60,797 bases of DNA from an uncultured Clostridia bacterium (lineage in GTDB: Bacteria > Bacillota > Clostridia > TANB77 > CAG-508). The position numbers were made by a program, and so were the translations under genes. The notes under the pieces were generated by a model. That model did no database searches. It worked only from the letters and a program-made list of their open reading frames with translations, and was not told the origin of the DNA. Below, in pieces: positions 3,147 to 44,200 of this stretch. How positions within the stretch are numbered: position 1 is the first letter of the stretch; every line of letters starts with the position of its first letter. The stretch is from the NCBI GenBank assembly GCA_944393735.1, contig CALYBE010000001.1:1-60797 (forward strand). Direction: 5' to 3'.

Positions 3147-3178
3147 TAAAAACGAGATTTTTTAAAATCTCGTTTTTT
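3147..3178. terminator. Bidirectional hairpin terminator (kinase gene on +; ancestral tRNA-Gln terminator on -)
   Basis: AACGAGATTTT / AAAATCTCGTT stem is flanked by an A-run and a T-run, and abuts the left island repeat. Confidence 0.55.
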
Positions 3179-3190
3179 GGTTGGGCTGGC
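3174..3190. repeat. Island-distal att direct repeat (attL-like)
   Basis: TTTTTGGTTGGGCTGGC is identical to 16494-16510. It duplicates the last 13 nt of tRNA-Gln plus 4 nt. Confidence 0.85.
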
Positions 3191-3278
3191 AAAATATCTT
3201 TTGTAGGAAATGCTCGAATTTTCAGGATTTATAGGTTTTAACTTAAGTTTTTCATGCAATTTTCATGCGATTTAAAAA

Positions 3279-4739
3279 TTAAGATGTTTTTTCTTGAAAT
3301 AAATTATATTTGTTTTTTATTTTGTCTAGAACTTCATATAGTACTTTTTTATCTAAGTCATCCAAACAAGTATTGCTAACTGATTGTTTTAGTTTATTAA
3401 GTTCTATACTAATTATTTTATCTTGATCTAGTTTTGAATAATTTAATCCTAATTCATTTAAATAATTTTCACTTTTTGCATTGTATTTGTTTTTGTATTC
3501 TGCAAAAGCATCAAAATAAGTATTTAAAGTCACTTCAATATCTTTGTGGCCTAATAGACACTTAAGAACCTCGGCTGGCATACCTGATTCTATTTTTCTT
3601 GTAGCATATGTATGTCTTAAAACATATTGAGTTTCATTCCAACCACTTCCTATATTATTTTTTTTACAAAATCTTTTAAAAGCACTATTAGAAGCGGAAA
3701 TTGATATAAAATTATTATCCCAAAATAAAAGATTATATTTATTTTCTTTCCTTTGAGCTAATAGTTCTTTGATTATTAATTTAGCATCATTATTTAAGTC
3801 AATAATTCTATCGCCAGAATATGTTTTAGTAGTATCTCCTAATATTGTTTTTCCATTCTTATCGTGTGTTAGTGTATTTTTAATATATATTTTATTTTCT
3901 GCAAAGTTAATATTGTTAATGTCAATAGCATAAACCTCTCCTGGTCTTAGTCCTAAATTTAACATTAATAGCCATGCTAATTTATATTTATTACTAGTTT
4001 CTTTTTTTATAGATTCAATAAATTTTTTTTGCTCAGATATAGTAAAAGCTTTTACTTTTTCAGTTTTGCATTTTGATTTTGGCCTTCTAAATTCATCTTT
4101 ATCATCTAGCGGATTTAAAATCAAAATTTTTTTTCGAACAGCTTTTATAAATGTAGCATTGAGTAAACCATAATCTTTTCCTATTACTGAATCAGAATAA
4201 GATGTTATATATTTTAAATATTTGTGTATATCGTTGTCTGTTACTTCCTGAGCTGGTTTGTTCATAAATTCATGTTGTCCTAATCTATTTAATTTGGCTA
4301 AATTTGCAATATATGAATTATCAGTAGTGATATTTTTGTCATGTCTATCTTCTACAATTGATTTAGCAATATCATATAAAGTTATTTTTGATTTATCAAC
4401 AATGGCGTCATTATTAATTTTATTTATTGTGTCTAAATTGTTTTTTGCAGCATCTTTTTTCTTTTTTGCGTATTTGGGTGTGGTTCTAGTGCCATCCTTT
4501 TTAGTTGCTTGGCTTACGCTTCTTTCATAAATATAATATCTATCACAATATTTTAAACAATTAATGCACTGTTTACATTTGTCACATAGTTTTTTACAAT
4601 CTTCTCTATTGTTGCACAAATTTTTGTTATTACAATTTTTACAAGTTTCACATATTTCGAGATTTGAATTATCTTTCTTTATTTTTTGAATAAATTCGTA
4701 AACGGAACCTTCTCCATTAGATCTTCTTCCTTTTTTCAT
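3279..4739 (-). CDS. Tyrosine site-specific recombinase (phage-type integrase) with a Cys-rich N-terminal insert
   Basis: Catalytic signatures are present: LGLRPGEV, YVLRHTYATR, LLGHKDIEVTLNTY. The N-terminus RRSNGEGSVYEF is typical of Firmicute integrases. There are 13 Cys between residues ~31 and 66. Confidence 0.9.
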   Translation of the reverse strand: MKKGRRSNGEGSVYEFIQKIKKDNSNLEICETCKNCNNKNLCNNREDCKKLCDKCKQCINCLKYCDRYYIYERSVSQATKKDGTRTTPKYAKKKKDAAKNNLDTINKINNDAIVDKSKITLYDIAKSIVEDRHDKNITTDNSYIANLAKLNRLGQHEFMNKPAQEVTDNDIHKYLKYITSYSDSVIGKDYGLLNATFIKAVRKKILILNPLDDKDEFRRPKSKCKTEKVKAFTISEQKKFIESIKKETSNKYKLAWLLMLNLGLRPGEVYAIDINNINFAENKIYIKNTLTHDKNGKTILGDTTKTYSGDRIIDLNNDAKLIIKELLAQRKENKYNLLFWDNNFISISASNSAFKRFCKKNNIGSGWNETQYVLRHTYATRKIESGMPAEVLKCLLGHKDIEVTLNTYFDAFAEYKNKYNAKSENYLNELGLNYSKLDQDKIISIELNKLKQSVSNTCLDDLDKKVLYEVLDKIKNKYNLFQEKTS

Positions 4740-4926: not shown

Positions 4927-4955
4927 TTGACAGTTTTTTTTTTTTTTATTATAAT
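4927..4955 (+). promoter_or_regulatory. Consensus sigma-A promoter (TTGACA-17-TATAAT) with a T14 tract in the spacer
   Basis: TTGACA at 4927-4932, TATAAT at 4950-4955, and a 17-nt spacer that includes T14 (4934-4947). It lies ~55 nt upstream of the first T7SS-locus gene. Confidence 0.65.
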
Positions 4956-5007
4956 GAACTCAAAGTTATCATTATAAATGATAATAAATTATAAAGGAGG
5001 AAAAAAT

Positions 5008-5622
5008 ATGGCACAGATTATGAATGTTGATTATGAAGCAATGCCAAATCAAGCAAAACAAATGAGACAATATGCTATTGAACTTAATAATGAATTTAAA
5101 ACAGCATACTCATATATAGGAGATATGCATAACTCATGGTATGGAGTTAGATACAATGAGTTAGTAAGAGATTTTAATAACTTAGCACCACAGGTAAATA
5201 AACTATTAAATTTAGTAGTTACAGAAATTCCATTTGCATTAGAAACAATTGCAAATAATTATTCACAAGCAGATAGAGGACAAAATGCAACAACAGCAGA
5301 AGAAACAACACCAAATAGAATTGAAGATTTACCAATAATAAATGATGTGGGAATGAGATTTATAACTGAAGATGTTGCTAACACACAAAGAGCTGTAACA
5401 GAAAAATTTGAATCAGTAAAAGAATTAATGAACAAAATTGAAGCAGAATATGGAAAAGTACAATGGCAAAGTGAAGCTTCAGATAGTTTTAAGGCAAGGT
5501 TTACACAATTAAAGAATGAAATAATGTCATCAATAGAGAATATAAACATACAATTCACAAAATTAATGAATCAAACAAAACAAGATATTGAAACAACAGA
5601 AAAATCAAATACTGTTCAATAA
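5008..5622 (+). CDS. Tandem WXG100-like protein (putative T7SS substrate), paralog 1
   Basis: AAGGAGG lies 8 nt upstream of ATG 5008. The first half has W44-Y-G46 in a helix-turn-helix context. The second half has W153-Q-S followed by ASDSFKARF, a WXG100-like pattern. The protein is 204 aa, about twice the WXG100 size. Confidence 0.6.
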   Translation: MAQIMNVDYEAMPNQAKQMRQYAIELNNEFKTAYSYIGDMHNSWYGVRYNELVRDFNNLAPQVNKLLNLVVTEIPFALETIANNYSQADRGQNATTAEETTPNRIEDLPIINDVGMRFITEDVANTQRAVTEKFESVKELMNKIEAEYGKVQWQSEASDSFKARFTQLKNEIMSSIENINIQFTKLMNQTKQDIETTEKSNTVQ

Positions 5623-5625
5623 TAT

Positions 5626-5693
5626 GAAAGCACATATATGTGCTTTCTAAAGTAATATACAAATATTATTTTAGAAAGCATATATATGCTTTG
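5626..5693 (+). terminator. Two similar tandem hairpins after the WXG-like gene (attenuator or partial terminator)
   Basis: GAAAGCACATATATGTGCTTTC (5626-5647) and AAAGCATATATATGCTTT (5675-5693). Confidence 0.4.
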
Positions 5694-5721
5694 TTAGAAA
5701 AATTGAAAGGAGAATTTGACT

Positions 5722-6012
5722 ATGGAAAAAAGTTTTTTACCAATAGGTACAGTATTAAAATTAAAAGGGAGTAAAAAAAGATTAATGATAACAGGTTTTT
5801 TTCCAATTGAAAATGATAAAACAGAAGAAAATAAAAAAATGTGGGATTATAGTGGTTGTTTATATCCAGAAGGGATAATATCATCAAAAAACAATTTTTT
5901 ATTTAATCATAATCAAATAGATGAAGTTCAATTTATGGGATTTGTTGACGAAGAAGAAAAAAAATTTGAAGAAACAATGAAAAAAGCAATAGAAAAATTA
6001 TATAATAATTAA
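5722..6012 (+). CDS. DUF4176-like small protein (T7SSb-locus associated)
   Basis: The pattern LPIGTVLKLKGSKKRLMITG...WDYSGCLYPEG...FNHNQIDEVQFMGFVDEEE matches my recollection of the DUF4176 family. AAAGGAG lies 9 nt upstream of ATG 5722. Confidence 0.7.
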   Translation: MEKSFLPIGTVLKLKGSKKRLMITGFFPIENDKTEENKKMWDYSGCLYPEGIISSKNNFLFNHNQIDEVQFMGFVDEEEKKFEETMKKAIEKLYNN

Positions 6013-6031
6013 ACTAAGAGAGTGGAAAGTT

Positions 6032-9000
6032 ATGTTAGTAACACTAATTGGAAAAAATACTTTATATAAATTGAAATTACCAAATGAACATGATGGTAAT
6101 TATTGGATTAAAAATGATAATGAAACAAAGTTAGTTAATATTTTTGGAAGAAAAGATGAATGGCAAATATGTAGTAATGAACAAGTTAAAATATTGGCAC
6201 CAAAATCAATAACTTCTTTTAATATATCTAAGATAAAAGATGATCCAAAAAATATAATTAATAAAGTAGTGCTAAGAGAAGGAGGCATCTATTACTTAGC
6301 ATTAGATGCAGATCCTAATATTTTATTTATATTACTTTGTGAATCTATTTATGAAAGAAATTTTATACATTTACAAGTTACAGATTTTAAAAATATAACA
6401 ATTGGTAGAAGTCAAACGTGTGATATAGTTTATGATAATCCATTAATAGAACCATTACAAGCAAAAATTTTTTTGAATAATGAGAAATTGATGATTAAAA
6501 ACTTTGATACTAATTATGGAACTTTTTTAAATAATATACCAGTATCAAATAAGTTAAAACTACTTTTTTATGGTGAGATGATATTTATTATGGGATTAAG
6601 GATTGTAATTGTTGGAAAAAATATTTTTATAAACAATCCTTATAATAGAGTAACATACAATCATGAAAAATTTCAAATTATAAAAAATAATCATGAAATA
6701 ATTACTTCAATGGAAAAAAAAGATGAAAATGTAAAATTACTTTCAAAAGATGATTTTTTTACAAGAGCACCTAGGATAATTGGTAAGATTGAAAAGGAAA
6801 AGATAAAGATTGACCCTCCACCACAAAAGCAAGAAAAAAATGATAAACCATTAATATACATCATAGGACCAAGTATAGCAATAAGTATTGTTATGTTAAT
6901 GTCTTTGATATCAACAATAAGTGGTGCTTCAGGAGGAAATTCATCAAAAGCAAGAATAGTTATGTCAGTAATTACAATAGGTGCAATGTTAATAAGTATA
7001 ATACTTTTTCCAATATTAAACAATAAATATGAAAAAAAGAAAAAGAAAAAAAGAGAACAAAAAAGACAAAAAAAATATAAAGAATATATAGAAAAAAAAT
7101 TGGAACAAATAGATGATGTAATGCAAAAACAAAAGAATATTTTATTTGATGAATTTTTATCTTCAGAGGATTGTGCACAAATAATTTTGAATAAAGGCTC
7201 AAGACTTTGGGAGAGAAGAATAAATGATGATGATTTTCTTTCAATAAGAGTTGGATTAGGAAATGTACCATTAGAAGCTGATATAGAATATCCCAATAAA
7301 GAGTTTTCATTAGAAGAAGATAATTTGTTGGATTTAATAAAATATGTGGCAAATAAATCAAAATTGATTAAAAATGCTCCAATAGTAGTATCACTCACTT
7401 CTAAAAATATAGCAGCCTCAATCATAGAAAATGATGAAAGAAATACAGAAAAATTTATACAAAATTTAGTTATGCAATTAATAGCACTACATAGTTATGC
7501 GGATTTGAAAATAGTGTTTTTTTTAAAAAAAGGAAAACAAATAAAATGGGAACATATGCAAACGATTCCACACATTTGGGATAATCAAAGGCAGATAAGA
7601 TTTTGGGCAGATGACTATGAAGAAATGAAAGAAATATCAAGATATTTAGAGGTGGAATTTAATGAGAGAAAAAAATATGGAGATAAATTTGATTATAAAA
7701 CATTTTCTCCATACTATTTAATAATAACTGATGACTATAAAACAATTGCAAACTTAAAAATAGTTACAGAAATTTTAAGTATAAGAAAAAATATAGGGTT
7801 TAGTTTATTCTGTATAACTGATAATTTCATTAATTTACCTAATGAATGCCAATTATTTATAAGCATAGATGGAAATAAAGGGAAGATATTTGAAAACAAA
7901 ATAACAGAAACAACTCAAAATGAATTTTATTTTGATAATTCATTTACATTCTTTTTTGAAAATATGGGTCCAATATTATCGAATATACAAATAAGGGAAA
8001 ATACAACATCAAAATTTTCTTTACCAGAAAGTTATACATTTTTAGAAATGTATGATGCAGGAAGAATAGAACAATTAAATATATTACAGAAATGGAGAAC
8101 AAATGATTCAACTAAATCATTACAAGCACCTATAGGAATAGATATAAATGGTAATCAAATAGTATTAGATATACATGAAAAAGTACATGGACCACATGGC
8201 TTAATTGCTGGAAGTACCGGTTCTGGAAAGAGTGAATTAATAATAACTTATATACTGTCTTTAGCAGTAAATTATCATCCTAATGATGTTGAAATTATTT
8301 TAATAGATTATAAAGGAGGAGGACTATCAGGAGCTTTTCAAAAAGGAGATGTAAAGTTGCCTCATATAGTTGGAACAATTACAAATATAGATAAAGCAGG
8401 TTTACAAAGGTCACTTGTATCTATACAAAGTGAATTAAGAAGGAGACAAGTAAAATTTAATCAAGCACGAGAAAAAACAGATGAAGGAACAATTGATATA
8501 TATAAATATCAGAAATTATATCATGATGGACAGGTAAGTGAGCCAATACCACATTTATTAATAATTTGTGATGAATTTGCTGAATTAAAACAACAACAAC
8601 CAGATTTTATGGATGAATTAATGAGTGTCGCTAGAATAGGACGTAGTTTAGGTGTACACTTAATATTATCAACACAGAAACCAGCTGGTATAGTAAATGA
8701 CCAAATACGTAGTAATAGTAGATTTGAAATTTGTCTAAGAGTACAAGATAGGCAAGACAGTATTGATGTAATAAAAAGACCAGATGCAGCTGATATTAAA
8801 AATGCTGGACAGTTTTATATGTTAGTTGGAAATGATGAATATTTTACTTTTGGACTTTCTGCTTGGTCTGGAGCAAGTTATGAACCATCTGATATTATAA
8901 AGAAAAGTATAGATACTTCAATTAAATTTGTTTCTAATACAGGTTCTGTAATAAAAAAAATAGATGATAATCATAAAAAGGTTCCAATAAAGAAAAAAGA

Positions 9001-10612
9001 AGAACAATTAACAAATATTGTAAAATACATATATGAATTAGGAAAAAGTGAAAATATTAAGCTAAAACCATTATGGTTAGATACACTGCCAAATGTAATT
9101 TTATTAAATGAAATAAAGAAAAAGTATAATATAACTAAAAAAGCTGAAGATATAGTACCAGTGATTGGTGAATATGATGACCCATATAATCAAAGACAAG
9201 GTGTTGTGGAATTAAACTTTAAAAAGCAAGGTAATACAATTATATATGGAAATGCTGAAAGTGGTAAAGAGACTTTAATAAGTACAATGATATTTGATAT
9301 AATTTCAACATATGATGTAGATGAAGTACAATTATATTTATTAGATTTTGGTAGTGAAACATTAAAAATTTTTAATAATGCACCACATGTAGGAGACGTA
9401 GTTTTAAGTTTGGATTCAGAAAAAATAAGTAGATTATTTGAAATGCTTCAAAAAGAAATGAAAAGAAGAACAGAATTATTATCTAATTATGGTGGAGACA
9501 TAAAATTATATATAAAAGATACTAGAAATGCAATGCCACAAATTATAATTGTAATAAATAATTATGAAGGATTTGTAGAAAACTATGGTGAAAAATATGA
9601 TGATGTTTTACTTACTCTATGCAGAGAAGGTATAAAATATGGAATAATATTTGTATTATCAGTTAGTTCATATAACAGTATAAGATATAGATTATTACAG
9701 AATTTTAAGCAAAAAATAGCATTGCAATTGAATAATGAAGATGATTATAACAATATATTAGAAGGAATAAAAAAACAAAGACCATCACATATATTTGGTC
9801 GAGGTTTAATAAGATATGATGATATATATGAATTCCAAACAGCAACAATATGTAAAGCAGAAGAATGGAATTTATATGTAAGAAAAAAAATAGAAAAATT
9901 AAATGAAAAGTATACTAAAAAGGCTACCCCAATACCTGTATTACCAAAGAAAGTAGATATAAATGATATAAAAGAAAAAATAAAAAGTTTGGATAAATTA
10001 CCAATAGGTATATATAAATCAAATTTAAGTATAGCAACTTATGATTTTAAAAATAGTTTTATTAATATTATATCTGCAAAAAATACAGAGGTTGTTGCTG
10101 AATTTTTAATACATATTTATGAAATTTTAAAACTTATTGAAGATGTTAATATTGAAATATTTGATGGAGAAGGAATTATACGAAACAATTCAAATAATAT
10201 TAAACTTGAATATAAAAATTTTTTATTCAAAATGCAAAATAATCTAGATAAATCAAAATATAATGTATGTATAATTATTGGAATTGATAAGTTTTTAACA
10301 AGTATAGATAGTGATTTTATCCAAGATTTAAAAATAGCAGAAGAAACAAAAAAATATATATTTATTATTGCTGATAGTGTTTACAAACTAAAAAATCATG
10401 AATATGATGACTGGTATAAAAAATTTGTTACAAAAGATAAGGGAATTTGGATTGGAAATGGAATAAGTGATCAATATTTATTACATTTAAATTCAATTAA
10501 TAGAAATATTATAAATAATTGTGGAAATAGTTTTGGATATATTATTGAACAAGAAGAAGCAAAAATGATTAAGCTTGTAGGAATGAAAGATGTTGGTGAT
10601 GAAAATGAATAA
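6032..10612 (+). CDS. essC: T7SS EssC/YukB-type FtsK-SpoIIIE ATPase with N-terminal FHA-like domains
   Basis: The protein is 1526 aa. FHA-like segments are present (ITIGRSQTCDIVYDNP...GTFLNN). Two TM helices lie around aa 280-330. P-loop 1 is GSTGSGKS with Walker B LLIICDEFAEL. P-loop 2 is GNAESGKET. The third module is degenerate. Confidence 0.9.
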   Translation: MLVTLIGKNTLYKLKLPNEHDGNYWIKNDNETKLVNIFGRKDEWQICSNEQVKILAPKSITSFNISKIKDDPKNIINKVVLREGGIYYLALDADPNILFILLCESIYERNFIHLQVTDFKNITIGRSQTCDIVYDNPLIEPLQAKIFLNNEKLMIKNFDTNYGTFLNNIPVSNKLKLLFYGEMIFIMGLRIVIVGKNIFINNPYNRVTYNHEKFQIIKNNHEIITSMEKKDENVKLLSKDDFFTRAPRIIGKIEKEKIKIDPPPQKQEKNDKPLIYIIGPSIAISIVMLMSLISTISGASGGNSSKARIVMSVITIGAMLISIILFPILNNKYEKKKKKKREQKRQKKYKEYIEKKLEQIDDVMQKQKNILFDEFLSSEDCAQIILNKGSRLWERRINDDDFLSIRVGLGNVPLEADIEYPNKEFSLEEDNLLDLIKYVANKSKLIKNAPIVVSLTSKNIAASIIENDERNTEKFIQNLVMQLIALHSYADLKIVFFLKKGKQIKWEHMQTIPHIWDNQRQIRFWADDYEEMKEISRYLEVEFNERKKYGDKFDYKTFSPYYLIITDDYKTIANLKIVTEILSIRKNIGFSLFCITDNFINLPNECQLFISIDGNKGKIFENKITETTQNEFYFDNSFTFFFENMGPILSNIQIRENTTSKFSLPESYTFLEMYDAGRIEQLNILQKWRTNDSTKSLQAPIGIDINGNQIVLDIHEKVHGPHGLIAGSTGSGKSELIITYILSLAVNYHPNDVEIILIDYKGGGLSGAFQKGDVKLPHIVGTITNIDKAGLQRSLVSIQSELRRRQVKFNQAREKTDEGTIDIYKYQKLYHDGQVSEPIPHLLIICDEFAELKQQQPDFMDELMSVARIGRSLGVHLILSTQKPAGIVNDQIRSNSRFEICLRVQDRQDSIDVIKRPDAADIKNAGQFYMLVGNDEYFTFGLSAWSGASYEPSDIIKKSIDTSIKFVSNTGSVIKKIDDNHKKVPIKKKEEQLTNIVKYIYELGKSENIKLKPLWLDTLPNVILLNEIKKKYNITKKAEDIVPVIGEYDDPYNQRQGVVELNFKKQGNTIIYGNAESGKETLISTMIFDIISTYDVDEVQLYLLDFGSETLKIFNNAPHVGDVVLSLDSEKISRLFEMLQKEMKRRTELLSNYGGDIKLYIKDTRNAMPQIIIVINNYEGFVENYGEKYDDVLLTLCREGIKYGIIFVLSVSSYNSIRYRLLQNFKQKIALQLNNEDDYNNILEGIKKQRPSHIFGRGLIRYDDIYEFQTATICKAEEWNLYVRKKIEKLNEKYTKKATPIPVLPKKVDINDIKEKIKSLDKLPIGIYKSNLSIATYDFKNSFINIISAKNTEVVAEFLIHIYEILKLIEDVNIEIFDGEGIIRNNSNNIKLEYKNFLFKMQNNLDKSKYNVCIIIGIDKFLTSIDSDFIQDLKIAEETKKYIFIIADSVYKLKNHEYDDWYKKFVTKDKGIWIGNGISDQYLLHLNSINRNIINNCGNSFGYIIEQEEAKMIKLVGMKDVGDENE

Positions 10613-10856
10613 AGTATTAGTAAAAGTATATGTACCTATGTTAGAAGAAATTTATGATGTATGGATTCCTACTAATAAAAAAGTATATGAAATTATAGTA
10701 TTATTGGTGAAAGCGATTAAAGATTTAAGTGAAAAATGTTATAATCCAAAAGAATTCCCAACATTATATGATAAAATAACAGGAAATGAATTCGATTTAA
10801 ATTTATTATTAAATGATACAACAATAAAGAATGGAACAGAATTGGTTTTAATATAA
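10605..10856 (+). CDS. esaB: YukD/EsaB-like small ubiquitin-fold T7SS protein
   Basis: The 83-aa product overlaps the essC stop by 8 nt. Position, size and N-terminal beta-strand pattern (VLVKVYVP...YDVWIP) fit YukD/EsaB. Confidence 0.6.
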   Translation: MNKVLVKVYVPMLEEIYDVWIPTNKKVYEIIVLLVKAIKDLSEKCYNPKEFPTLYDKITGNEFDLNLLLNDTTIKNGTELVLI

Positions 10857-10884
10857 TACCAAAGTATTTTGAAAGGAAGATATA

Positions 10885-11712
10885 ATGAAAACACTAAAAT
10901 ATGAAAATATTGATCAGAACAAAGACAGTTCCAATGTTAGTATAAATGAGTTGTTAAAAGAGGATAAGCAATTAGTTTCTTTTATTGGACCAAGACAGAG
11001 TGGAACATCATTTCTTATAGATAATATATCAAAAATATTAGCTAGAAGAGATATAGATGTTGCAATATTAGATTTGACATCAAATAGAGCATCATATTAT
11101 ATATATACAAAAAATGAAGAAAAATTAAAACAACAACAAAAAAACTGCCTAAAAAATATAGCAGAGGGTAATCCATTAGGAATTCAAGTTGAAAAAAACT
11201 TAGTAGTTTATACAGATCTACAACGAGAAAATGAAAAAGACTTAAAAGCAGAAAAAATATTAGAAGTATTGTTAAAAAAACATAAAATAATAATTTTAGA
11301 TACTGACTTTTCAACTGATGTAAGTTACTTTTTATATTCTAAAAAAATATATTTAGTGCAGACAATGGATGTTCTAACTATCCAATCATTTACAGAATTT
11401 TTATCTAAATTAAAATTGCAAAATGCTATAAATGATGAGAAAATAAGAGTTGTGTTAAATAAATTTATAAATTTAAATGGAATTACAGAAAAAGAATTAA
11501 TAAATAGATTAGCATTTTATAATGATCCGACAAAATCATATATGCAACAATTATTTGAGAAAAATGGATTAAAGTATACAACAATTCCATATAATCAGCT
11601 TGCATATGAAACATATTTACAATATATGGCAGAATATAAAATAACTAAAGTTGAATATATAATAGGTTTTAAAAACCAACTAGATGGTTTAGCAGATGAT
11701 GTTATAAGTTAA
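10885..11712 (+). CDS. ParA/MinD-fold (SIMIBI) protein with a degenerate Walker A
   Basis: VSFIGPRQSGTSFLIDNISKILA sits at the P-loop position and lacks both lysines. A Walker-B-like IIILDTD and VVLNKF are present. Confidence 0.55.
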   Translation: MKTLKYENIDQNKDSSNVSINELLKEDKQLVSFIGPRQSGTSFLIDNISKILARRDIDVAILDLTSNRASYYIYTKNEEKLKQQQKNCLKNIAEGNPLGIQVEKNLVVYTDLQRENEKDLKAEKILEVLLKKHKIIILDTDFSTDVSYFLYSKKIYLVQTMDVLTIQSFTEFLSKLKLQNAINDEKIRVVLNKFINLNGITEKELINRLAFYNDPTKSYMQQLFEKNGLKYTTIPYNQLAYETYLQYMAEYKITKVEYIIGFKNQLDGLADDVIS

Positions 11713-11751
11713 AATATTTAAATTAAAATTAAAAGGAAGGAATGATTCACA

Positions 11752-11922
11752 TTGGATAGTAAAACTTTTTATACAAATAGTATAAATAAAAAATTTACAA
11801 CAATTAGTGGTAAAGATAAATTAAAAGGAGAATTATTCACAAAACTTATTGAACAAACAAATGAAATGATTGATAATACAAATACAAATAAAGATAATAT
11901 ACTAAAAAATATAAAAAAATAG
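11752..11922 (+). CDS. Small 56-aa helical protein upstream of the effector (below the ORF-track size cut-off)
   Basis: A TTG start lies 11 nt after AAAAGGAAGG. The frame is open to TAG at 11920-11922, which overlaps the RBS of the next gene. Product: LDSKTFYTNSINKKFTTISGKDKLKGELFTKLIEQTNEMIDNTNTNKDNILKNIKK. Confidence 0.4.
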   Translation: MDSKTFYTNSINKKFTTISGKDKLKGELFTKLIEQTNEMIDNTNTNKDNILKNIKK

Positions 11923-11935
11923 TTAGGAGGAAAGT

Positions 11936-13759
11936 ATGTTTAGTTTTTGCGAAGATGTATTTAATGAATTATGTACAAGCTTAGAGAATACAATACAAGA
12001 AATAATAACAGAAGCTAATGATAGTAAAAGTAGCGCAGAGACATTAAAACAAGAAGCAGTAGCATTAAGAGAACAAGCAGCAGAATTAAGGGAACAAGCA
12101 GTAGCATTAAGAGAACAAGCTAAAGCATTAAGAGCACAAATTCCAGGTTTAAGGGAACAAGCAGCAGTACTTTATGCAAAGCAAGAATGGAAAACAGTAA
12201 CTTCAACAGTAACAAATTCAGAAACAGGAGAAGAAGAAACAGTAAGTGAAACTGTAAGAGATTATGAAGCAGAGGCCGCCAATCAAGCACAAGCAGCAGC
12301 ATTGGAATCACAAGCAAATGCACTAGAAGTACAAGCAGCCGAACTAGAATCACAAGCAAACTCAAAAGAAGCAGAAGCTACAGTAAAAGAAGCAGAAGCA
12401 ATAGCAAAAGAAGCAGAGGCTGCAGCACTAGAATCATTATCATCAGTTTTGACAGCATCATCTGAAGCAATAGGATCACAAATAAACACATTTAAGGAAG
12501 CAAAAGTAGAAGTAGAAAAAGCTACAAATGCAACAACATCATTATTAAATGAGGGATTAAATTTAATTTCTAGTTCTTTAAGTGCAATAAGTAATGCAAG
12601 TAATTTTATAATAGGTGATTGGGGAAATGGATTAGCTTCAAATATAATAGAGAATGTTGGGACTGAAATAAAGGGAGGAATTGAAAAACTCCAAGAAATG
12701 GCAAATGAAGTTATAGATAATGTAAAAATAGCTACAACAAATGTACAAGAATTTACTAGTGAAATTGGAAATTATATTATGGAAAGTCCTTTAGGACAAG
12801 CAGCAAAAGAATTTATAGATGGTTTTACAGAACAGAATGTAGAAAGTTTGATTGATCAAAATAGAGCGAAATTAGCTAATAATATTGTATCTGCACTAAC
12901 TTTTTTTGGAGCGGATCCGGAATTTATAGAGACTATCATGGGAGATTCTGTCACAATAGAGCTAACAAATTCAGTGGAAACATTTGAAGAAGCAAAAGCA
13001 GAAGCAAAAAGATTATATGTAGAATATATAAATGGATTAGATTATACTGATGAAGAAAAACAACAATTAATTAATAAATTTAATACTGCCGTGGACAATA
13101 TAGAAGTGTTATCTGATCAGGATATGGCTAAATTAATGGGTAATGGTGATAGTGGTTTTATAACATTGGCATTTTACAATGGACCATTGGATAAAGCATA
13201 TATAAGAGAATCATCAAAAATAGACGTAGCAACAATAATTCATGAAGTAGGAGGACATGGAACAGGAAGCATGATACCACCTGAATATCAAGGGTATCAT
13301 TACTTTGATGAAGAACTTCAAAGATATGTAAAATATGAAGGAAATTTTGAGGATGCAGATTGCTTTTTACTATATATGTCAACTTCAGATAAAAATGGAA
13401 CAATTTATGCTGGAATTGATGAGGCAACTACGGAATATTTTACAAGAAAAATATATGGAGAAGTAGAAAGTACCAGTGCATATAACGGAAGTACTGATAC
13501 ATTAGAAAGTATTACTGAATCAATGAAAGAATATTGTGGTATTGATGGTGAGAAATTATTGTATGAAACATATACTGGAGAAGATAAAGATGCATTTAAG
13601 AATGTATATAATGAAATTATGGGAGATGATACAGCTTATGATGAATTAACTAATATAATGTATTCTAATAATACACAAGGTGGTTCTGAATTTACTTTGG
13701 ATGTTGAAGCATTTGCATTTGATGTAAAATGCAAGCAATACAAACAACAGAAAAAATAA
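11936..13759 (+). CDS. Putative T7SS-secreted effector: coiled-coil repeat N-terminus with a C-terminal H-E-x-x-x-H domain
   Basis: The protein is 607 aa with no signal peptide or TM segment. It has Ala/Glu/Gln-rich heptad repeats, and HEVGGH at aa 436-441. It lies inside the T7SS-like locus, followed by a small gene. Confidence 0.5.
   Translation: MFSFCEDVFNELCTSLENTIQEIITEANDSKSSAETLKQEAVALREQAAELREQAVALREQAKALRAQIPGLREQAAVLYAKQEWKTVTSTVTNSETGEEETVSETVRDYEAEAANQAQAAALESQANALEVQAAELESQANSKEAEATVKEAEAIAKEAEAAALESLSSVLTASSEAIGSQINTFKEAKVEVEKATNATTSLLNEGLNLISSSLSAISNASNFIIGDWGNGLASNIIENVGTEIKGGIEKLQEMANEVIDNVKIATTNVQEFTSEIGNYIMESPLGQAAKEFIDGFTEQNVESLIDQNRAKLANNIVSALTFFGADPEFIETIMGDSVTIELTNSVETFEEAKAEAKRLYVEYINGLDYTDEEKQQLINKFNTAVDNIEVLSDQDMAKLMGNGDSGFITLAFYNGPLDKAYIRESSKIDVATIIHEVGGHGTGSMIPPEYQGYHYFDEELQRYVKYEGNFEDADCFLLYMSTSDKNGTIYAGIDEATTEYFTRKIYGEVESTSAYNGSTDTLESITESMKEYCGIDGEKLLYETYTGEDKDAFKNVYNEIMGDDTAYDELTNIMYSNNTQGGSEFTLDVEAFAFDVKCKQYKQQKK
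12056..12160 (+). repeat. Five tandem 21-nt (7-aa) coding repeats
   Basis: Units start at 12056, 12077, 12098, 12119 and 12140. Units 1 and 3 are identical (GCAGTAGCATTAAGAGAACAA). They encode A(V/A)(A/E)LREQ. Confidence 0.9.
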
Positions 13760-13782
13760 TGTGGAAAGGAGATTAAATTAAA

Positions 13783-14292
13783 ATGGAAAATAATACAGTA
13801 ATAGAAGACTTAACAAAAGAGTTTGTAAATACAATTCCAAATGATGAAGATAAACAAGAATTGAAACAAGCATTCGAAAAATATTTATATGAATATAAAA
13901 AAGTACTAGAAAAATCTAATATAAATTCAATTGATGATGCATTAAAATTCTCAGCAAATAAAATAATGAAATTGCCATTATATAGTAAAAAACAAAAGCT
14001 AATTGAAGACGAGAGTTTTAAAGAAATACAAAAAATTTCATCAAAAGCTTTTGAACTAGCAAAAAAAGTTGTAACAGGAAAAAAAGAAGATATAGATAAG
14101 AATTTGCTAGAAGAAATGAAAAATAAGCTAAAGATATGTTTAAATGATGTAAGAGAATTTAATAAGCAACAAGCAAGTATGCTAGTTTCTGAGGGGATAT
14201 TAGATTTAGTGTTTGTAGAAAATCCAAAAACACATTTAATAAGTATAAGATTGGGAAAAAATGCAATTAGGTTAAAAAATAATATGAATTAA
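13783..14292 (+). CDS. Hypothetical cytoplasmic helical protein; candidate immunity or chaperone partner of the effector
   Basis: The 169-aa product starts 23 nt after the effector stop. It has a GGAG RBS and no hydrophobic segments. No domain is recognised. Confidence 0.35.
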   Translation: MENNTVIEDLTKEFVNTIPNDEDKQELKQAFEKYLYEYKKVLEKSNINSIDDALKFSANKIMKLPLYSKKQKLIEDESFKEIQKISSKAFELAKKVVTGKKEDIDKNLLEEMKNKLKICLNDVREFNKQQASMLVSEGILDLVFVENPKTHLISIRLGKNAIRLKNNMN

Positions 14293-14341
14293 TAGGAAAG
14301 TAAAACATATTAAAAAAAAAGAATATAGAAGGAGGAAAACT

Positions 14342-14953
14342 ATGAGTCTAACGATAACAGTAGACTATGAGAATATACCAGGACAATCTAGTCAAGCGAG
14401 AAATATTGGAATGCAAATAAATGAAATACTATTAGATGTATATAGAAATGTAACTAATATGCATAATTTCTGGTATGGAAAAAGATATAATGATATTGTA
14501 ACAAATTTTAATAGTTTAGTGCCTCAACTAAATAACTTCTTAGAAATAGTTGTATCAGAAATTCCATATATATTTGAGAAAATAGTAAATAATTTCTCTG
14601 AGGTAGATATTAAACAAAATATGACAGTAGCTCAAAAAGAAAGTGTACAACAAATTCAAACAATTCCATTATCTACAGAAGTAGGAATGAAGTATATTCA
14701 AGGGGAAGTGGCTAATATACAAAATGCAATAGAATCAGATTTTCATGAAATAATAAGTCTAATGAGTGGATTAGAAAATACAATAAATCAAATAGGAATA
14801 GAATATGAAACAGCTGATAATTTTAAGTCAGAGTTTAAAAGTTTAGCTAATTCATTTAGACAATTTATAGAAAATCTAGAAAGACAATTTACAAATGCAA
14901 TGAATGTAAATAGAACTCAAATACAAAAAGCAGAGTCAGGAAATACAATTTAA
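14342..14953 (+). CDS. Tandem WXG100-like protein, paralog 2
   Basis: It has the same architecture and conserved blocks as 5008-5622 (MHNFWYGKRYNDIV..FN.L.PQLN...VVSEIPY...NNFSE.D). GGAGG RBS. Confidence 0.6.
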   Translation: MSLTITVDYENIPGQSSQARNIGMQINEILLDVYRNVTNMHNFWYGKRYNDIVTNFNSLVPQLNNFLEIVVSEIPYIFEKIVNNFSEVDIKQNMTVAQKESVQQIQTIPLSTEVGMKYIQGEVANIQNAIESDFHEIISLMSGLENTINQIGIEYETADNFKSEFKSLANSFRQFIENLERQFTNAMNVNRTQIQKAESGNTI

Positions 14954-15253: not shown

Positions 15254-15781
15254 ATGTTTGAAAAAAATGGAGTCATAGGAAATACACCAATGATAAAAAT
15301 AAATTATAAATACAATGGAAAAGAAAAAAGGATATTTACCAAATTAGAATATTTTAATTTAACAGGAAGTATAAAAGACAGAGTTGCATTTTATATAATT
15401 AATAATGCTAAAAAAAGAGGAATTTTGAAAGAGAAAATGCCAATAGTTGAAGCTACAAGTGGAAATACAGGAATAGCATTATCAGCATTAGGAAGTTATT
15501 ACAAACATCCAGTATATATCTTTATGCCAGATTGGGCTAGTAAAGAAAGAATTGAAATAATGAAAAGCTATGGTGCAAAAATATTTTTATTTTCAAGAGA
15601 AGATGGTGGATTCATAAGATGTGTAAATGAGGCAGAAAAATTGGCAAAAGAAATAAATGGATTTTGGGCTAATCAATTTTCTAATAAAGATAATTATCTG
15701 GCTCACTATGAAATAACAGGAGAAGAGATATTAAGACAGCTTCCAGAAAAAATAATAGTTGCAATTCATATATTAATGTAA
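15254..15781 (+). pseudogene. cysK: Truncated cysteine synthase (CysK/CysM family) fragment
   Basis: The N-terminal ~165 aa match the PLP cysteine synthase pattern (GNTPM, SIKDR, TSGNTGIALS). The frame ends at 175 aa, before the GTGGT loop; full-length enzymes are ~300 aa. Confidence 0.7.
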
Positions 15782-15822
15782 TATAATGATAGTGAATAAA
15801 GATGTTGAAAGGGGGAATTGCA

Positions 15823-16323
15823 ATGGAAGAAAATATAAAATACAAAAATGATATAGTACAAGATGCATATTATCTAATAAAAAAATTTAAAGATGATGGA
15901 AAAAGTGTAACTAATTTACAAATACAAAAATTAATGTATTTTTTTGAAGCATATTATATGAATGTATATGATGTTGATAAATTGTATGATTGTAATTTTT
16001 GTGCATGGGCATATGGACCTGTAGCAATTCCACTATATAAAGAGCTAAAGAAATTTGGAAATGACAATATAGAATTGACAGAAGAAAATATAGATAGTGC
16101 AGAAAAGGTTTTTGAAGACAAAAAGAAATTACTAGACCAAATATATAATGTATTTAAAGATGTACCAGCAATGACCCTTGTAGATTTTACACATATGACT
16201 GGTTCTCCGTGGAAAGAAGTGTGGGAAAGAAACGGAGAAAAAGTAGGATATGGTGCAAATACATATATAGACAAAATAAAAACGAAAGAATGGTTTAAAG
16301 ATGTCTTCCAGAAAAGAACATAA
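15823..16323 (+). CDS. Panacea (DUF4065, SocA/GepA-like) domain protein; putative antitoxin
   Basis: NLQIQKLMYFFEAYY...FCAWAYGPVAIPLYKELKKFG matches the DUF4065 core. GGGGG RBS lies 7 nt before ATG 15823. Confidence 0.7.
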   Translation: MEENIKYKNDIVQDAYYLIKKFKDDGKSVTNLQIQKLMYFFEAYYMNVYDVDKLYDCNFCAWAYGPVAIPLYKELKKFGNDNIELTEENIDSAEKVFEDKKKLLDQIYNVFKDVPAMTLVDFTHMTGSPWKEVWERNGEKVGYGANTYIDKIKTKEWFKDVFQKRT

Positions 16324-16493: not shown

Positions 16494-16510
16494 TTTTTGG
16501 TTGGGCTGGC
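16494..16510. repeat. tRNA-proximal att direct repeat (attR-like)
   Basis: TTTTTGGTTGGGCTGGC is identical to 3174-3190 and overlaps the tRNA-Gln 3' end. Confidence 0.85.
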
Positions 16511-16572
16511 TAGATTCGAACTAGCGCATGTTAGAGTCAAAGTCTAATGCCTTACCGCTTGGCTACAGCCCA
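16498..16572 (-). tRNA. tRNA-Gln (anticodon UUG)
   Basis: The reverse complement UGGGCUGUAGCCAAGCGGUAAGGCAUUAGACUUUGACUCUAACAUGCGCUAGUUCGAAUCUAGCCAGCCCAACCA folds as a cloverleaf. Anticodon loop is CUUUGAC, T-loop is UUCGAAU, and CCA is encoded. Confidence 0.9.
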
Positions 16573-22064: not shown

Positions 22065-22784
22065 ATGTCAAGACTTCCGCGAAATTACATGAAGACTCCA
22101 TTTTTTCACATAATTACCCAAGGAATTGAAAAAAGGTTTATATTTGAAAAACCAGAAGATATAAAATATTATATAAAAATAATGTATAAAATAAAAGAAG
22201 AACATAACATCAATATTATAGCATATTGTATAATGAATAATCATACACATATGCTAGTGGAAACTCAAGTAATAGAACAATTAAGTAAATATATGCAAAG
22301 AATTAATACTACATATGGAAAATATTATAATAAGAAATATAATAGAGTTGGCTATGTTTTTAGAGATAGGTATAAAGCGGAAGGAATATATAGTGAAAAA
22401 CATTTATATAACTGCATAAAATATATCCATAATAATCCAGTAAAAGCTGGAATATGTAACAAAGCTGAAGAGTATCCATATTCAAATTATAAAATGATGA
22501 GAACCGAATTTAAAGAGAAATATAGTTCGATGGCTAAAAGTGATTACAGTAATGTAGAATATGAATTTATTGATGTGGATGAAAAGAATGAAAAACCATG
22601 TGATAAAATTATCGAAGTATATCTAAAAGAAAATAAGATAGACTTAAAATCTATAAAACAAAGTAAAGAAATGTTAAAGAAACTAATTATATTTTTAAAG
22701 GATGAAAATAAAATTTCGCTGAGGAAAATAGCAGAAGGAATAGAAATGAGTAGAGAGACGGTTAGAAAAATATATAATCAATAA
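22065..22784 (+). CDS. rayT: REP-associated tyrosine transposase (HUH/Y1, IS200-like) with a C-terminal HTH-like extension
   Basis: HUH motif NNHTHMLV. GYVFRDRYKAE, and the catalytic-Tyr region YIHNNPVKAG. The C-terminal ISLRKIAEGIEMSRETVRKIY resembles an HTH. Confidence 0.8.
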   Translation: MSRLPRNYMKTPFFHIITQGIEKRFIFEKPEDIKYYIKIMYKIKEEHNINIIAYCIMNNHTHMLVETQVIEQLSKYMQRINTTYGKYYNKKYNRVGYVFRDRYKAEGIYSEKHLYNCIKYIHNNPVKAGICNKAEEYPYSNYKMMRTEFKEKYSSMAKSDYSNVEYEFIDVDEKNEKPCDKIIEVYLKENKIDLKSIKQSKEMLKKLIIFLKDENKISLRKIAEGIEMSRETVRKIYNQ

Positions 22785-41235: not shown

Positions 41236-44200
41236 ATGAAAGAATTAACAAACCCACAGAAATCAATATGGGTAACAGAGCAATATTACAAAGGAAGTTC
41301 TGTTAATAATATATGTGGAACTGCAGTAATAGATGAAAATGTTGATTTCGATAAATTAGAAAAATCTATAGAAATTGTATGTCAAAAACACGATAATTTT
41401 AAATTGAAATTTAAAATAATAAATGGGGAAGTAAAACAGGTATTATCTGAGTCAAAAAAGGTAAAGGTAGATACTATTAAAGTCGAGGGCTTAAAAGAGT
41501 TAGAAAAATATAGAGAAAAAATTGTAAAAACGCCATTTAATTTAGAAAATTCTGAAATCTTTAAATTTTATATCTTTAAATTTGAAAATGGTAAAGGAGC
41601 TTTTATGCTCAATGTACACCATTTAATTTCTGACGCATGGACACTTGCGTTCATTTGTAATGAAATCATAAAAACTTATTCAGCACTAAAACAAAATAAA
41701 GAAATCGAAACAAAGGCTATATATTCATATATAGACTATATTGAATCTGAAAAAGAATATCAAAAAAGTGAAAAATATCAAAGAGACAAAAAATATTGGG
41801 AAGAAAAATTCCAAACAATACCAGAAGTAGCAACAATACCTGGAAGCAAAAAAGGAAATATAGACTTAAATGATGCAACAGGAGAAAGAAAGCAATTTAC
41901 ATTAGAAAAAAATAAAGTAGAAAAAATAAAAAAATACTGTAAAATAAACCGAATCTCATTATACAACTTTTTTATGGCTGTATATGCAATATATATATCT
42001 GAGATTTCAAATTTAGAAGAATTCGTAATAGGAACACCAATACTTAACAGAACAAATTTCAAAGAAAAAAATGCAGCAGGAATGTTTATAAATATGGAGC
42101 CATTACGAATTAACTTAAATGGAATAAAAGACTTTAAAACATTTATAAAAAATATTGCAGAAGATTCTATGCAAATGCTTAAACATCAAAAATATTCATA
42201 TCAATGCCTATTAGAGAATTTAAGAGAAAAAAATAAGGAATTACCAAACTTATATAATATTTTAATTTCATATCAAATAACAAATGCCCAGACAAATGAA
42301 GCGGGAATAAAATATAGAACAGAATGGACATTTAATGGTTGTTGTGCGGAAAATATGGATATTCAAATATTTGACTTAAATGATACAGGAAGTTTAAATA
42401 TAGCTTATGACTATAAAACAAGCATTTATGAAGGTAGTGATATAGAAAAACTTCATAAAAGAATAGTAAATATAATTTTACAAGTAATACAAAGAGAAAA
42501 TATAGAAATAAAAGATATAGAAATAATTACATCAACCGAAAAGAAAAAATTATTATTAGATTTTAATCAAACATATTTAGAATATGACACAGAAAAACCA
42601 ATTATTAAATATTTTGAAGAACAAGTAGAAAAAACGCCAAACAATATAGCTATAGTATTTGAAAATAAAGTATTAACATATAGAGAATTAAACCAAAGAG
42701 CCAATAGTTTAGGAGCATATTTAAGAGGAAATGGTGTAGCAAATGACACAATAGTAGGAATAATGCAAGAACGTTCTGCAGAAGTATTAATAGCAATTCT
42801 TGCAGTATTAAAAGCAGGAGGAGCATATATTCCAATAGATCCAAGCTATCCAGACGACAGAATTGAATATATGTTAGAAGACAGTAATGCTGAATTTTTA
42901 TTAACAGATGAAAAGCAAAAACAAAGAATAAAAACTGATAAGAAAGTAATAAATATAAAATTAAATAATAAAGAAATTTATGGAAAAAATGAAGAGAACT
43001 TTGAAAATATTTCAGAGCCAGAAGATTTATCATATTTAATATATACATCTGGTTCAACAGGAACACCAAAAGGTGTAATGCTAACACAGCAAAATTTAAG
43101 TAATTTTTATTATGCAATGATTGAAAATATAGAATATTTAAAAGACGAAAAACCACATAAAATAATCTCTATAACAACTGTTTCATTTGACATATTTGAA
43201 TTTGAAACATTAATTTCATTAACAAGAGGATTAACTGTATACATGACAAATGAAAATGAGCAGAAAATAACAGCAGAACTAGAAAAAACAATAAAAGAAA
43301 ATCAAATAGAAATTATTCAAACAACACCTTCAGTAATGAAATTCCATTTAGATAATAATATAAATGAAGAAAATTTAAAAAGCTTAAAATATATAATGCT
43401 TGCAGGTGAGCAATTACCAAGAACACTTGTAAATAACTTAGTAAGAATTATTCCAGAAGTAACAATATATAATGGATATGGACCATCTGAAACTACAATT
43501 TTCTCTAGTACAAAAAAAGTTAAAGATAAAGAAAAAGTCACAATTGGAAGGCCAATAGCAAATACTCAAATATACATATTAAACACAAACAAAAAACTAT
43601 TGCCACAAGGTACCATTGGAGAAATGTATATTTCAGGTGATGGAGTTGGAAGAGGCTACATGAATAAAAAAGAACAAACTGAAAGTAGTTTTATTTCAAA
43701 CCCATTTATTCCAGGAACTATAATGTATAAAACAGGAGATTTAGGAGCTTTTGATGAAAAAGGAGAAATTACATGTTATGGAAGAATTGACAACCAAGTA
43801 AAAATAAGAGGATTAAGAATAGAACTTTCAGAAATAGAAAGACAGATGCAATCTATATATAATGTTGCTGATTGTGTTGTAATAAAAAAACAAGTAAATG
43901 GTAGAGAGGCATTATGTGCATATTATACTCAAAATGGACAAGTTGATGAAAGTGTTATAAAAACAGTACTACAATCTAAATTACCACAATATATGGTACC
44001 TCAATATTTTATTAGGCTACATCAAATGCCACACACACCAAATGGGAAAATAGATAGAAAAGCTTTGCCTGACCCAGAAATAAAAGAAACTAATAAAAAA
44101 ATAATAAAACCAAGAAATGAAATAGATGAAGAATTAATAAAGATAATAGAAAATATGTTTAATGTAGAACACATTAGCTTAACAGATACAATATTTGACT

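Follow-up and report, generated by a model that had tools for sequence, protein, structure and literature searches.

Positions 4927 to 14953 of a 60,797-nt stretch of DNA from an uncultured Clostridia bacterium (contig CALYBE010000001.1, hereafter the window) carry a cassette of nine genes that probably constitutes an intact, uncatalogued and stripped-down type VII secretion system (T7SS), which descends from the T7SSe/d ATPase lineage, belongs to uncultured low-GC gut Clostridia and would work by the mechanism proposed below. The general T7SS core is present, namely an EssC-family ATPase with two transmembrane (TM) helices, a WXG100 protein and a ubiquitin-fold protein. The gene set as a whole fits none of the published subtypes T7SSa to T7SSj, which were defined by ATPase phylogeny and gene neighbourhood in a catalogue drawn from RefSeq without metagenome-assembled genomes (MAGs) (Garrett, Higginson & Palmer 2024, Microlife; PMC11217815). 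The window has a G+C content of 26% and contains Spo0A and other Clostridial housekeeping genes.

The nine genes are closely spaced on the + strand behind one consensus promoter. This predicted sigma-70-type promoter (TTGACA-17-TATAAT, 4927..4955, + strand) agrees with the consensus at 12 of 12 positions and is the top pattern match in the 12 kb scanned, its -35 box at 4927 lying upstream of the first gene. The genes encode, in order, a tandem WXG100 protein, a DUF4176 protein, the EssC-type ATPase, a ubiquitin-like protein, a ParA/MinD-fold protein, a 56-aa protein, a 607-aa candidate toxin, a 169-aa protein and a second tandem WXG-like protein. Open reading frame (ORF) calls and profile searches recovered every element that a first-pass annotation of this DNA had listed, including the 8-nt overlap of the ubiquitin-like gene with essC, which holds with the start at 10605 that gives 83 aa, as in all homologues. 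The same gene order with an identical EssC was found in 11 independent metagenome contigs, and the locus is therefore not a product of chance.

The ATPase (1526 aa, 6032..10612, + strand) is of the EssC/TsxC type. It reaches 1007.7 bits with the NCBIfam equivalog TIGR03928 (cutoff 778.4) versus 59.1 bits for FtsK and 21.5 bits for TraB models, and its best solved relative in the PDB is YukB of B. subtilis (409 bits), followed by EccC5 (118 bits) and FtsK (~56 bits); the initial assignment to EssC rather than to conjugative FtsK/TraB-type proteins is thus borne out. An FHA domain (E=4e-9) and FtsK_SpoIIIE Pfam domains were recognized. The P-loops of the first two modules, GSTGSGKS in D1 (residue 727) and GNAESGKET in D2 (residue 1073), are intact, and the third module (D3) is degenerate and has no third GxxxxGK, exactly as first described. 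Across species the protein retains 53-70% identity by BLASTP over ~1526 aa (64-78% when restricted to conserved alignment columns), with no frameshifts.

The ATPase places the cassette in a different lineage from the one first proposed. We compared it by BLASTP with ten representative ATPases, N-terminus to D2, which were rebuilt from the machine-read Fig. S2 of PMC11217815, so that each subtype is represented by one sequence with some optical character recognition noise. The best match is TseC of T7SSe (839 bits, 38.5% identity over residues 1-1269, aligned from residue 1 with the FHA region included), followed by TsiC (641 bits), TsdC (604), TsfC (533), TsgC (516), TshC (491), S. aureus EssC (482), TsjC (439), TscC (430) and EccC (85). 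TseC is the top match for all 11 clade members tested (822-865 bits, compared with 614-682 for TsiC, 514-565 for TsfC and 434-495 for S. aureus EssC), the top-hit order holding in ten relatives. A neighbor-joining tree of seven clade members makes the clade sister to TseC and groups it with TseC/TsdC. Because of this ranking and this tree, we assign the ATPase, by sequence comparison, to the T7SSe/d lineage and not to T7SSb or to the Clostridial T7SSf. The label 'T7SSb-like' given on first pass must accordingly be dropped: the S. aureus protein scores 482 bits against 839 for TseC, and EssA, EssB and EsaA are absent. The T7SSf reading, attractive at first for a Clostridial system with a ParA-like component (TsfV), was also rejected, as TsfC ranks only fourth among the ATPase matches and neither TsfF nor TsfJ is present.

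EssC is the only membrane protein of the locus, as had been claimed. Hydropathy scanning by the Kyte-Doolittle method, a simple window rather than a dedicated TM predictor, assigns it two segments of TM grade (residues 272-301 and 306-332), with a further hydrophobic beta region (175-201) lying within the FHA domain. The maximum 19-residue mean of the other products does not exceed 1.09, which is below the TM threshold, and no hydrophobic + strand ORF of at least 20 aa occurs in the cassette, every hydrophobic small ORF being antisense and within a gene. None of the nine products has a Pfam or NCBIfam match to EssA, EssB/YukC or EsaA/YueB at E<=0.1; the profile searches of the island products and the TM scan thus agree with the earlier claim that these proteins are absent. 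Nor were EssB, EsaA or EssA family matches found by Pfam annotation in the related loci that we compared (L-numbers below), with flanks of ~10 kb read on either side in fragmented MAGs. With an ATPase of the TseC type, however, EssA, EssB and EsaA were never to be expected, and the telling absences are those of TseD, TseF, TseH, TseI, TseJ and TseK.

The published T7SSe loci encode TseA1, TseA2, TseB, TseC, the membrane Ser/Thr kinase TseD, the PPM phosphatase TseF, the single-pass proteins TseH and TseK, the ~1650-aa, Sec-exported and C-terminally anchored TseI, and TseJ with DUF6382 and FHA domains; TseD, F, H, I, J and K are consistently encoded, and TseJ and TseK occur at every T7SSe locus (PMC11217815). 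The cassette shares with this subtype the nearest ATPase, a ubiquitin-like TsxB, the number of WXG100 units (two) and a Bacillota host, but all six of these components are missing. No Pkinase or PP2C match to TseD or TseF was found in it, and TseH, TseK, TseI and TseJ have no counterpart either, since there is no TM segment outside EssC, no DUF6382 and no second FHA protein. The PP2C and PASTA-kinase genes next to one related locus (L009) are the housekeeping rlmN-stp-prkC genes and do not appear in the other contexts. T7SSe has two separate WXG100 genes (TseA1, TseA2); the cassette has two WXG100 units in a single 204-aa chain, and in addition the DUF4176 and ParA-like proteins. Finally, the phosphothreonine motifs of the TseC FHA domain are 90-99% conserved (PMC11217815 Table S1), whereas those of the cassette clade (GR, SxxH, NG) are degenerate across seven members: GR is kept in three of the seven, SxxH is lost in all (L020 keeps the H) and NG has become Y/F-G in all. 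This degeneration is consistent with the absence of a kinase and a phosphatase and with a loss of kinase control.

Three other subtypes resemble the cassette in part. T7SSg of Acetivibrio and Paenibacillus has a similarly small set of two WXG units, a ubiquitin-like protein and an ATPase that is the sole component with predicted TM helices (Supplementary Data 3, PMC11217815). In contrast to the cassette, its TsgC lacks an FHA domain and it has the DUF5050 beta-propeller TsgL and always lies beside Tad pilus genes; the cassette ATPase has an FHA domain and matches TsgC at only 516 bits, and neither DUF5050 nor Tad genes were found in the cassette or the window. T7SSf of Clostridium acetobutylicum and C. 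felsineum is likewise Clostridial, with an FHA ATPase of poorly conserved phosphothreonine motifs and no kinase, and its TsfV has, by published description, fold matches to Soj/MinD/ParA/BcsQ as the cassette ParA-like protein does (PMC11217815). TsfV differs in its N-terminal TadZ-like receiver domain, the 275-aa cassette protein having neither a receiver domain nor a Walker A lysine, and T7SSf differs further in its ATPase (533 bits), in the TsfF phosphatase and two-TM TsfJ (DUF6382 and FHA) that the cassette lacks, and in TsfA, a single WXG100 protein. The fold matches of TshM are also MinD/ParA-like (PMC11217815). With T7SSb (S. aureus Ess, B. subtilis Yuk) the cassette shares an ATPase that passes the EssC equivalog cutoff and has YukB as its nearest solved relative, a YukD/EsaB-type protein, DUF4176, and a candidate polymorphic toxin that has a helical N-terminus and is accompanied by small helical partners and, downstream, by a cognate protein. 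T7SSb differs in having EssA, EssB/YukC and EsaA/YueB, in an ATPase phylogeny from which the cassette is excluded, and in a core of homodimerising ~100-aa EsxA rather than a fused double unit; the N-terminus of the cassette effector gives no match to the LXG model of Pfam. No follow-up literature on T7SSe or T7SSf was found beyond PMC11217815. The arrangement is new, while single features have precedent, the ATPase as sole TM protein in T7SSg and a ParA-like protein in the TsfV of T7SSf. The unusualness claimed for the locus holds in that its gene set fits none of the subtypes a-j, and is less surprising than it first seemed given these two precedents (PMC11217815).

The first gene (5008..5622, + strand) encodes a tandem WXG100 protein of 204 aa (214 aa from an alternative start at 4978), the candidate core secreted subunit of TsxA type. 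It matches PF06013 in two stretches (E=4.1e-11) and TIGR03930 (E=7.8e-13, 48.4 bits, cutoff 44.85), with a WYG motif in its first half. The fused double-WXG family comprises 228 representative clusters at 50% identity, almost all of 200-210 aa, and a member is present in every related locus examined save L020, where none was recognized. Behind the gene, a long hairpin (5637..5684, + strand; a 20-pair stem and then a T-rich tail) is a possible attenuator that may raise expression of the first gene. The ubiquitin-like protein of 83 aa (10605..10856, + strand; 88 aa from an alternative start at 10590) matches PF08817 below the cutoff (E about 0.016-0.019), and the match, likewise sub-cutoff, runs end to end in six of eight relatives. 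For its family (71 clusters) AlphaFold2 (AF2) predicts a beta-grasp fold (pLDDT 96.8), whose best Foldseek matches (TM-score 0.79-0.80) are the EccD ubiquitin-like domains of ESX-5 and ESX-1 (7np7, 7npt, 7b9f, 4kv2). The protein has no C-terminal Gly-Gly and ends in ...ELVLI. On the strength of the predicted fold, we identify it as a TsxB/YukD-type component; in B. subtilis, YukD is the assembly factor of the channel ATPase YukB (PMC12637312). The DUF4176 protein (98 aa, 5716..6012, + strand) matches PF13780 (E=6.4e-28) and PDB entry 9dcs (E=2.9e-11), and its family consists of toxin-specific T7SSb chaperones, Ltc (PMC12478183).

The ParA/MinD-fold protein (275 aa, 10885..11712, + strand) matches the CbiA/ParA model below the cutoff (E=4e-4), and its AF2 model (pLDDT 81.5, pTM 0.83) resembles ParA, ParF, MinD, FlhG and BcsQ with TM-scores of 0.55-0.73 at 11-17% identity. 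PDB sequence searches with the YukD-like and ParA-like profiles gave nothing useful. The Walker A motif has the form GxxxxG-T-S, without lysine, throughout the family (GPRQSGTS in the window), and the protein is thus probably not a working ATPase, to judge from this motif. Where present, its gene always directly follows the ubiquitin-like gene; it is absent from L105-L108. The ParA-like protein of the L009-type cassette (P0039) is indexed in 2647 blocks of the collection searched. A scan of contigs for the ParA-like family mostly returned another protein of 720-1700 aa, composed of receiver, linker and ParA domains and syntenic with ireB, ruvX and rbgA. Its neighbours of ~380 aa (one TM) and ~908 aa (eight TM), considered as EssB and EsaA candidates, are really a GGDEF-like protein and a P-type ATPase, so that no hidden apparatus is present there. 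In this second family (L036, 8546-10879, and 73 further loci in L019-L094) the C-terminal domains are the closest relatives of the cassette ParA-like protein, and relatives occur in at least 572 GTDB species genomes of uncultured gut Clostridia. Its layout is TadZ/CpaE-like, with an N-terminal receiver-like domain, a low-complexity linker that contains both RGRGRPRKNP (AT-hook-like) and ILPGF repeats, and a tail that ends in ...LNKMKKKF; upstream lie genes for an SH3+glucosaminidase-like protein and a 135-aa three-TM protein, and downstream those for the one-TM GGDEF-like protein and ireB-ruvX-rbgA.

The distal part of the cassette looks like an effector module. Profile searches found no Pfam family for the 56-, 607- and 169-aa products. 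The 607-aa protein (11936..13759, + strand) matches nothing in Pfam or the PDB, and a database search with its C-terminal domain gave a single homologue. Its helical N-terminal ~330 residues are common to homologues in five other loci (six in all), and its C-terminal domain, with the motif IIHEVGGHGTG, occurs in four loci, L016 and L017 having a different domain in its place. The gene of the 169-aa protein (13783..14292, + strand; 169/176 aa among loci) is present in the four loci with the HEVGGH domain and absent in exactly L016 and L017. In L105, the HEVGGH motif corresponds in position to HEVNH in a 612-aa protein, behind which lies a homologue with 35% identity to the 169-aa protein, and in both L105 and L108 such homologues (33-35% identity) adjoin effector-sized genes. 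The DNA of a conspecific strain (L097, 10708-13512) is homologous to the window as far as the final base of wxg1 (window position 5623). Beyond it lie genes for a 127-aa helical protein, a 228-aa protein and an LXG-like protein (MLSVDVSGLENN...), a strain-level module replacement right after wxg1. Because of the swapped C-terminal domain, the co-variation of the 169-aa gene and this replacement, the 607- and 169-aa proteins look, by sequence comparison, like a polymorphic toxin and its cognate immunity protein or domain-specific partner, and the 607-aa product keeps its standing as the effector candidate named on first pass. Variable cargo is seen again in L109 (3134-4552), where a Peptidase_C39_2 domain is part of an effector-sized protein encoded upstream of essC.

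Two further products of the cassette are likely secretion partners of the effector, judging from sequence conservation and association. The 56-aa protein (11752..11922, + strand), a candidate targeting or partner factor encoded just before the effector, has a C-terminal motif GKxKLKGxLFxxLIxxTNE conserved in six loci and a variable, Ser/Asn-rich N-terminus. The second tandem WXG-like protein (203 aa, 14342..14953, + strand), a candidate effector co-secretion partner, has weak WXG matches (E=2.7e-5 / 1.5e-6), is 38% identical to the first WXG protein and accompanies the 607/551-aa effector family. Six tandem 21-nt repeats (12014-12181, and also 12293-12355) specify ALREQAx heptads within the N-terminal coiled coil of the effector; since homologues in other loci do not have these segments, repeat expansion has made this coiled coil longer.

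The survey of co-occurrence proposed on first pass shows the gene set to be widespread, in at least seven different chromosomal neighbourhoods of uncultured gut Clostridia. The nine-gene form is found at the tRNA-Gln island of the window and, with no integrase, at murT-gatD / rlmN in L009-L011, L015, L017 and L018 (the last from Clostridium sp. CAG:245), L017 lacking the 169/176-aa gene; proteins of the window and L009 are 40-75% identical. L016, on a contig too short for flanks, runs only from essC to the second WXG gene and also lacks the 169/176-aa gene. The core adjoins prfB with different effector genes in L012-L014, murF-mraY-ftsW in L020 and L109, and CmpB and an M23 peptidase in L059, the ParA-like gene being present in the last three loci; without that gene, it is found at mecA / radC-mreBCD in L105 and L106 and at prfB / thrS in L107 and L108. 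In L107 (1316-3343) and L108 (1324-3348), a gene for a TraG/VirD4-type coupling protein (T4SS-DNA_transf, TrwB_AAD_bind, TraG-D_C) precedes the T7 cluster by two genes, with prfB in between, which may be coincidental. The invariant genes are those for the ~204-aa tandem WXG protein (except in L020), the 1526-1536-aa EssC and the 83-88-aa ubiquitin-like protein; the DUF4176 and ParA-like genes are frequent and dispensable. EssC is the sole TM protein in every related locus, apart from glycine-rich hydrophobic stretches in effector-sized proteins, and no linked membrane protein, kinase or phosphatase of the cassette was found within the ~10 kb flanks, here or elsewhere.

In this genome the cassette lies on a 13.3-kb island inserted at a tRNA-Gln gene, which comprises an integrase, the nine-gene operon, a cysteine-synthase fragment and a SocA/Panacea protein. 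The integrase is a tyrosine recombinase of 486 aa (3279..4739, - strand; PF00589, E=7.5e-19), divergent from the secretion operon. The left direct repeat (3174..3195, att-like, TTTTTGGTTGGGCTGGCAAAAT) lies just after the terminator hairpin of a histidine-kinase gene, and the right copy is carried by the 3' end of tRNA-Gln (16498..16572, - strand), the integration site; the repeat TTTTTGGTTGGGCTGGC is found at 3174-3195 and 16494-16515, with 17 nt identical to 16494-16510, and its G+C-rich core is very unlikely by chance in DNA of 26% GC. The tRNA-proximal end (15254..16323, + strand) holds island cargo or remnants: a 175-aa cysteine-synthase-like fragment that covers only positions 4-158 of 295 of the PALP profile, and an orphan 173-aa SocA/Panacea-domain protein (PF13274, E=1.1e-14) with no obvious toxin partner. 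No empty sites were found, the island being present in all 22 contigs read with the identical flanking histidine kinase (10 places displayed). In most other conspecific assemblies the integrase is split or truncated by an insertion sequence (IS) with a DDE_Tnp_1-type transposase (L002, 5825-8700; same position in L003, L095-L100, L103 and L104), the window form being intact at 486 aa. The island is thus real, appears fixed in this species and is probably no longer mobile. The first-pass description of a mobile island holds for its tRNA-integrated position, integrase and direct repeats; it does not hold for the cassette in general, which occurs without an integrase at murT/gatD-rlmN elsewhere and here looks fixed.

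No T7-related genes were found in the rest of the window. An IS200-like Y1 transposase gene (22065-22784) lies ~6 kb past the island. Further on are a gene for a 3510-aa non-ribosomal peptide synthetase (41236-51768) with three C-A-T modules and a terminal NAD-binding reductase domain, and after it one for a 7TM-receptor histidine kinase (51787-53601).

We propose the following mechanism for the cassette. EssC oligomers would serve as both motor and membrane channel. The part that YukD plays for YukB, binding the ATPase and nucleating its assembly, would fall to the ubiquitin-like protein. The fused WXG protein may be an obligatory co-substrate or activator, made in excess because of the hairpin at 5637-5684 behind its gene. 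Recognition of the 607-aa toxin would involve its helical N-terminus, the 56-aa protein and the second tandem WXG protein; DUF4176 would stabilize the toxin and the 169-aa protein neutralize it. The ParA-like protein, presumably hydrolysis-deficient, could act as an optional cytoplasmic scaffold or positioning factor, in a role loosely analogous to that of the pseudokinase EssB or of TsfV in T7SSf. In this genome the cassette would have arrived on the 13.3-kb tRNA-Gln island, which appears to have become fixed since. In its strongest form, which we advance tentatively and rate at slightly below an even chance, the proposal is of a naturally minimal T7SS. Its whole membrane translocon would be a hexamer of EssC, assembled by the ubiquitin-like partner, and scaffolds of EssB, EsaA, EccB, EccD or EccE type as well as phosphorylation control would be lacking. 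A covalently fused WXG dimer and polymorphic toxins would be its secreted products, a catalytically dead ParA-fold protein would be an optional organizer, and the whole, 5-9 genes in ~10 kb, would be small enough to be moved among gut Clostridia as an island.

Several points weigh against this proposal. All functionally tested T7SS, T7SSa and T7SSb, require further membrane proteins (PMC11217815), and T7SSe, to which the nearest relative of the ATPase (TseC) belongs, has four additional membrane components. Flanks of ~10 kb in fragmented MAGs leave room for unlinked partners, the TM calls are those of a hydropathy window, and the subtype assignment depends on single, noisy representatives. Secretion and expression are predicted from the genes of the cassette. 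The toxin activity of the 607-aa protein is that of a candidate, its HEVGGH not being a canonical HExxH, and the ParA-like protein, missing in some clade members, cannot be an essential core part.

The most serious rival, unlikely though far from negligible in our estimate, is that the cassette is a genuine T7SS module that is not self-sufficient, its membrane or wall-spanning partners being encoded elsewhere, either as small single-pass proteins of TseH/TseK type or as a conduit of TseI/EsaA type. Besides the requirement of characterized systems for additional membrane proteins, the TseD, H, I and K components of the nearest lineage and the limited flanks inspected at each locus, this explanation draws on the fact that small single-TM proteins are easily missed and hard to find by homology. 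However, no conserved membrane neighbour was found across at least seven independent contexts, the 13-kb island brought no such genes, nothing T7-related occurs in the remainder of the 60-kb window, and T7SSg provides a precedent for a system with no linked partner. Core T7SS genes are usually clustered, which also counts against it. A decaying remnant of a fuller T7SSe-like system, which has lost its membrane and regulatory genes and with them secretion, is much less probable. Many T7SSe components are indeed missing, the FHA phosphothreonine motifs, the third ATPase module and the ParA-like Walker A are degenerate, and the integrase is IS-disrupted in many strains; yet the nine ORFs are intact, tightly packed and 40-75% identical across species, the D1 and D2 P-loops are intact, the promoter is a perfect consensus, and degenerate D3 modules and FHA motifs are normal in working T7SSb (PMC11217815 Table S1). 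Moreover, the reduced set has been kept across many species and dozens of protein clusters, which argues for purifying selection on the reduced form itself. The last rival, a conjugative or chromosome-segregation DNA translocase (FtsK/SpoIIIE/TraB) of a mobile element with incidental small genes, to which the FtsK_SpoIIIE domains, the adjoining integrase and tRNA-integrated island, the ParA-like gene after the ATPase and the TraG/VirD4-like genes of L107 and L108 might point, is effectively refuted by the profile and PDB scores, in which YukB is best and EccC next, and is further opposed by the multi-ATPase-domain architecture and FHA N-terminus typical of EssC, by the WXG100, DUF4176 and YukD-fold genes that flank the ATPase and by the occurrence of the same cassette without mobile-element genes.

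The identity of the T7SS channel and its truly indispensable components are still debated for both T7SSa and T7SSb. As a conserved natural system in which the ATPase is the sole linked membrane protein and the WXG pair is fused, the cassette would be an attractive minimal model for reconstitution and cryo-electron microscopy. If unlinked partners exist, it would still be a new gene arrangement, although an ordinary one. With the cassette, the catalogue of subtypes a-j is extended to an abundant lineage of uncultured gut Clostridia, where toxin-based competition is probably the role of the system.

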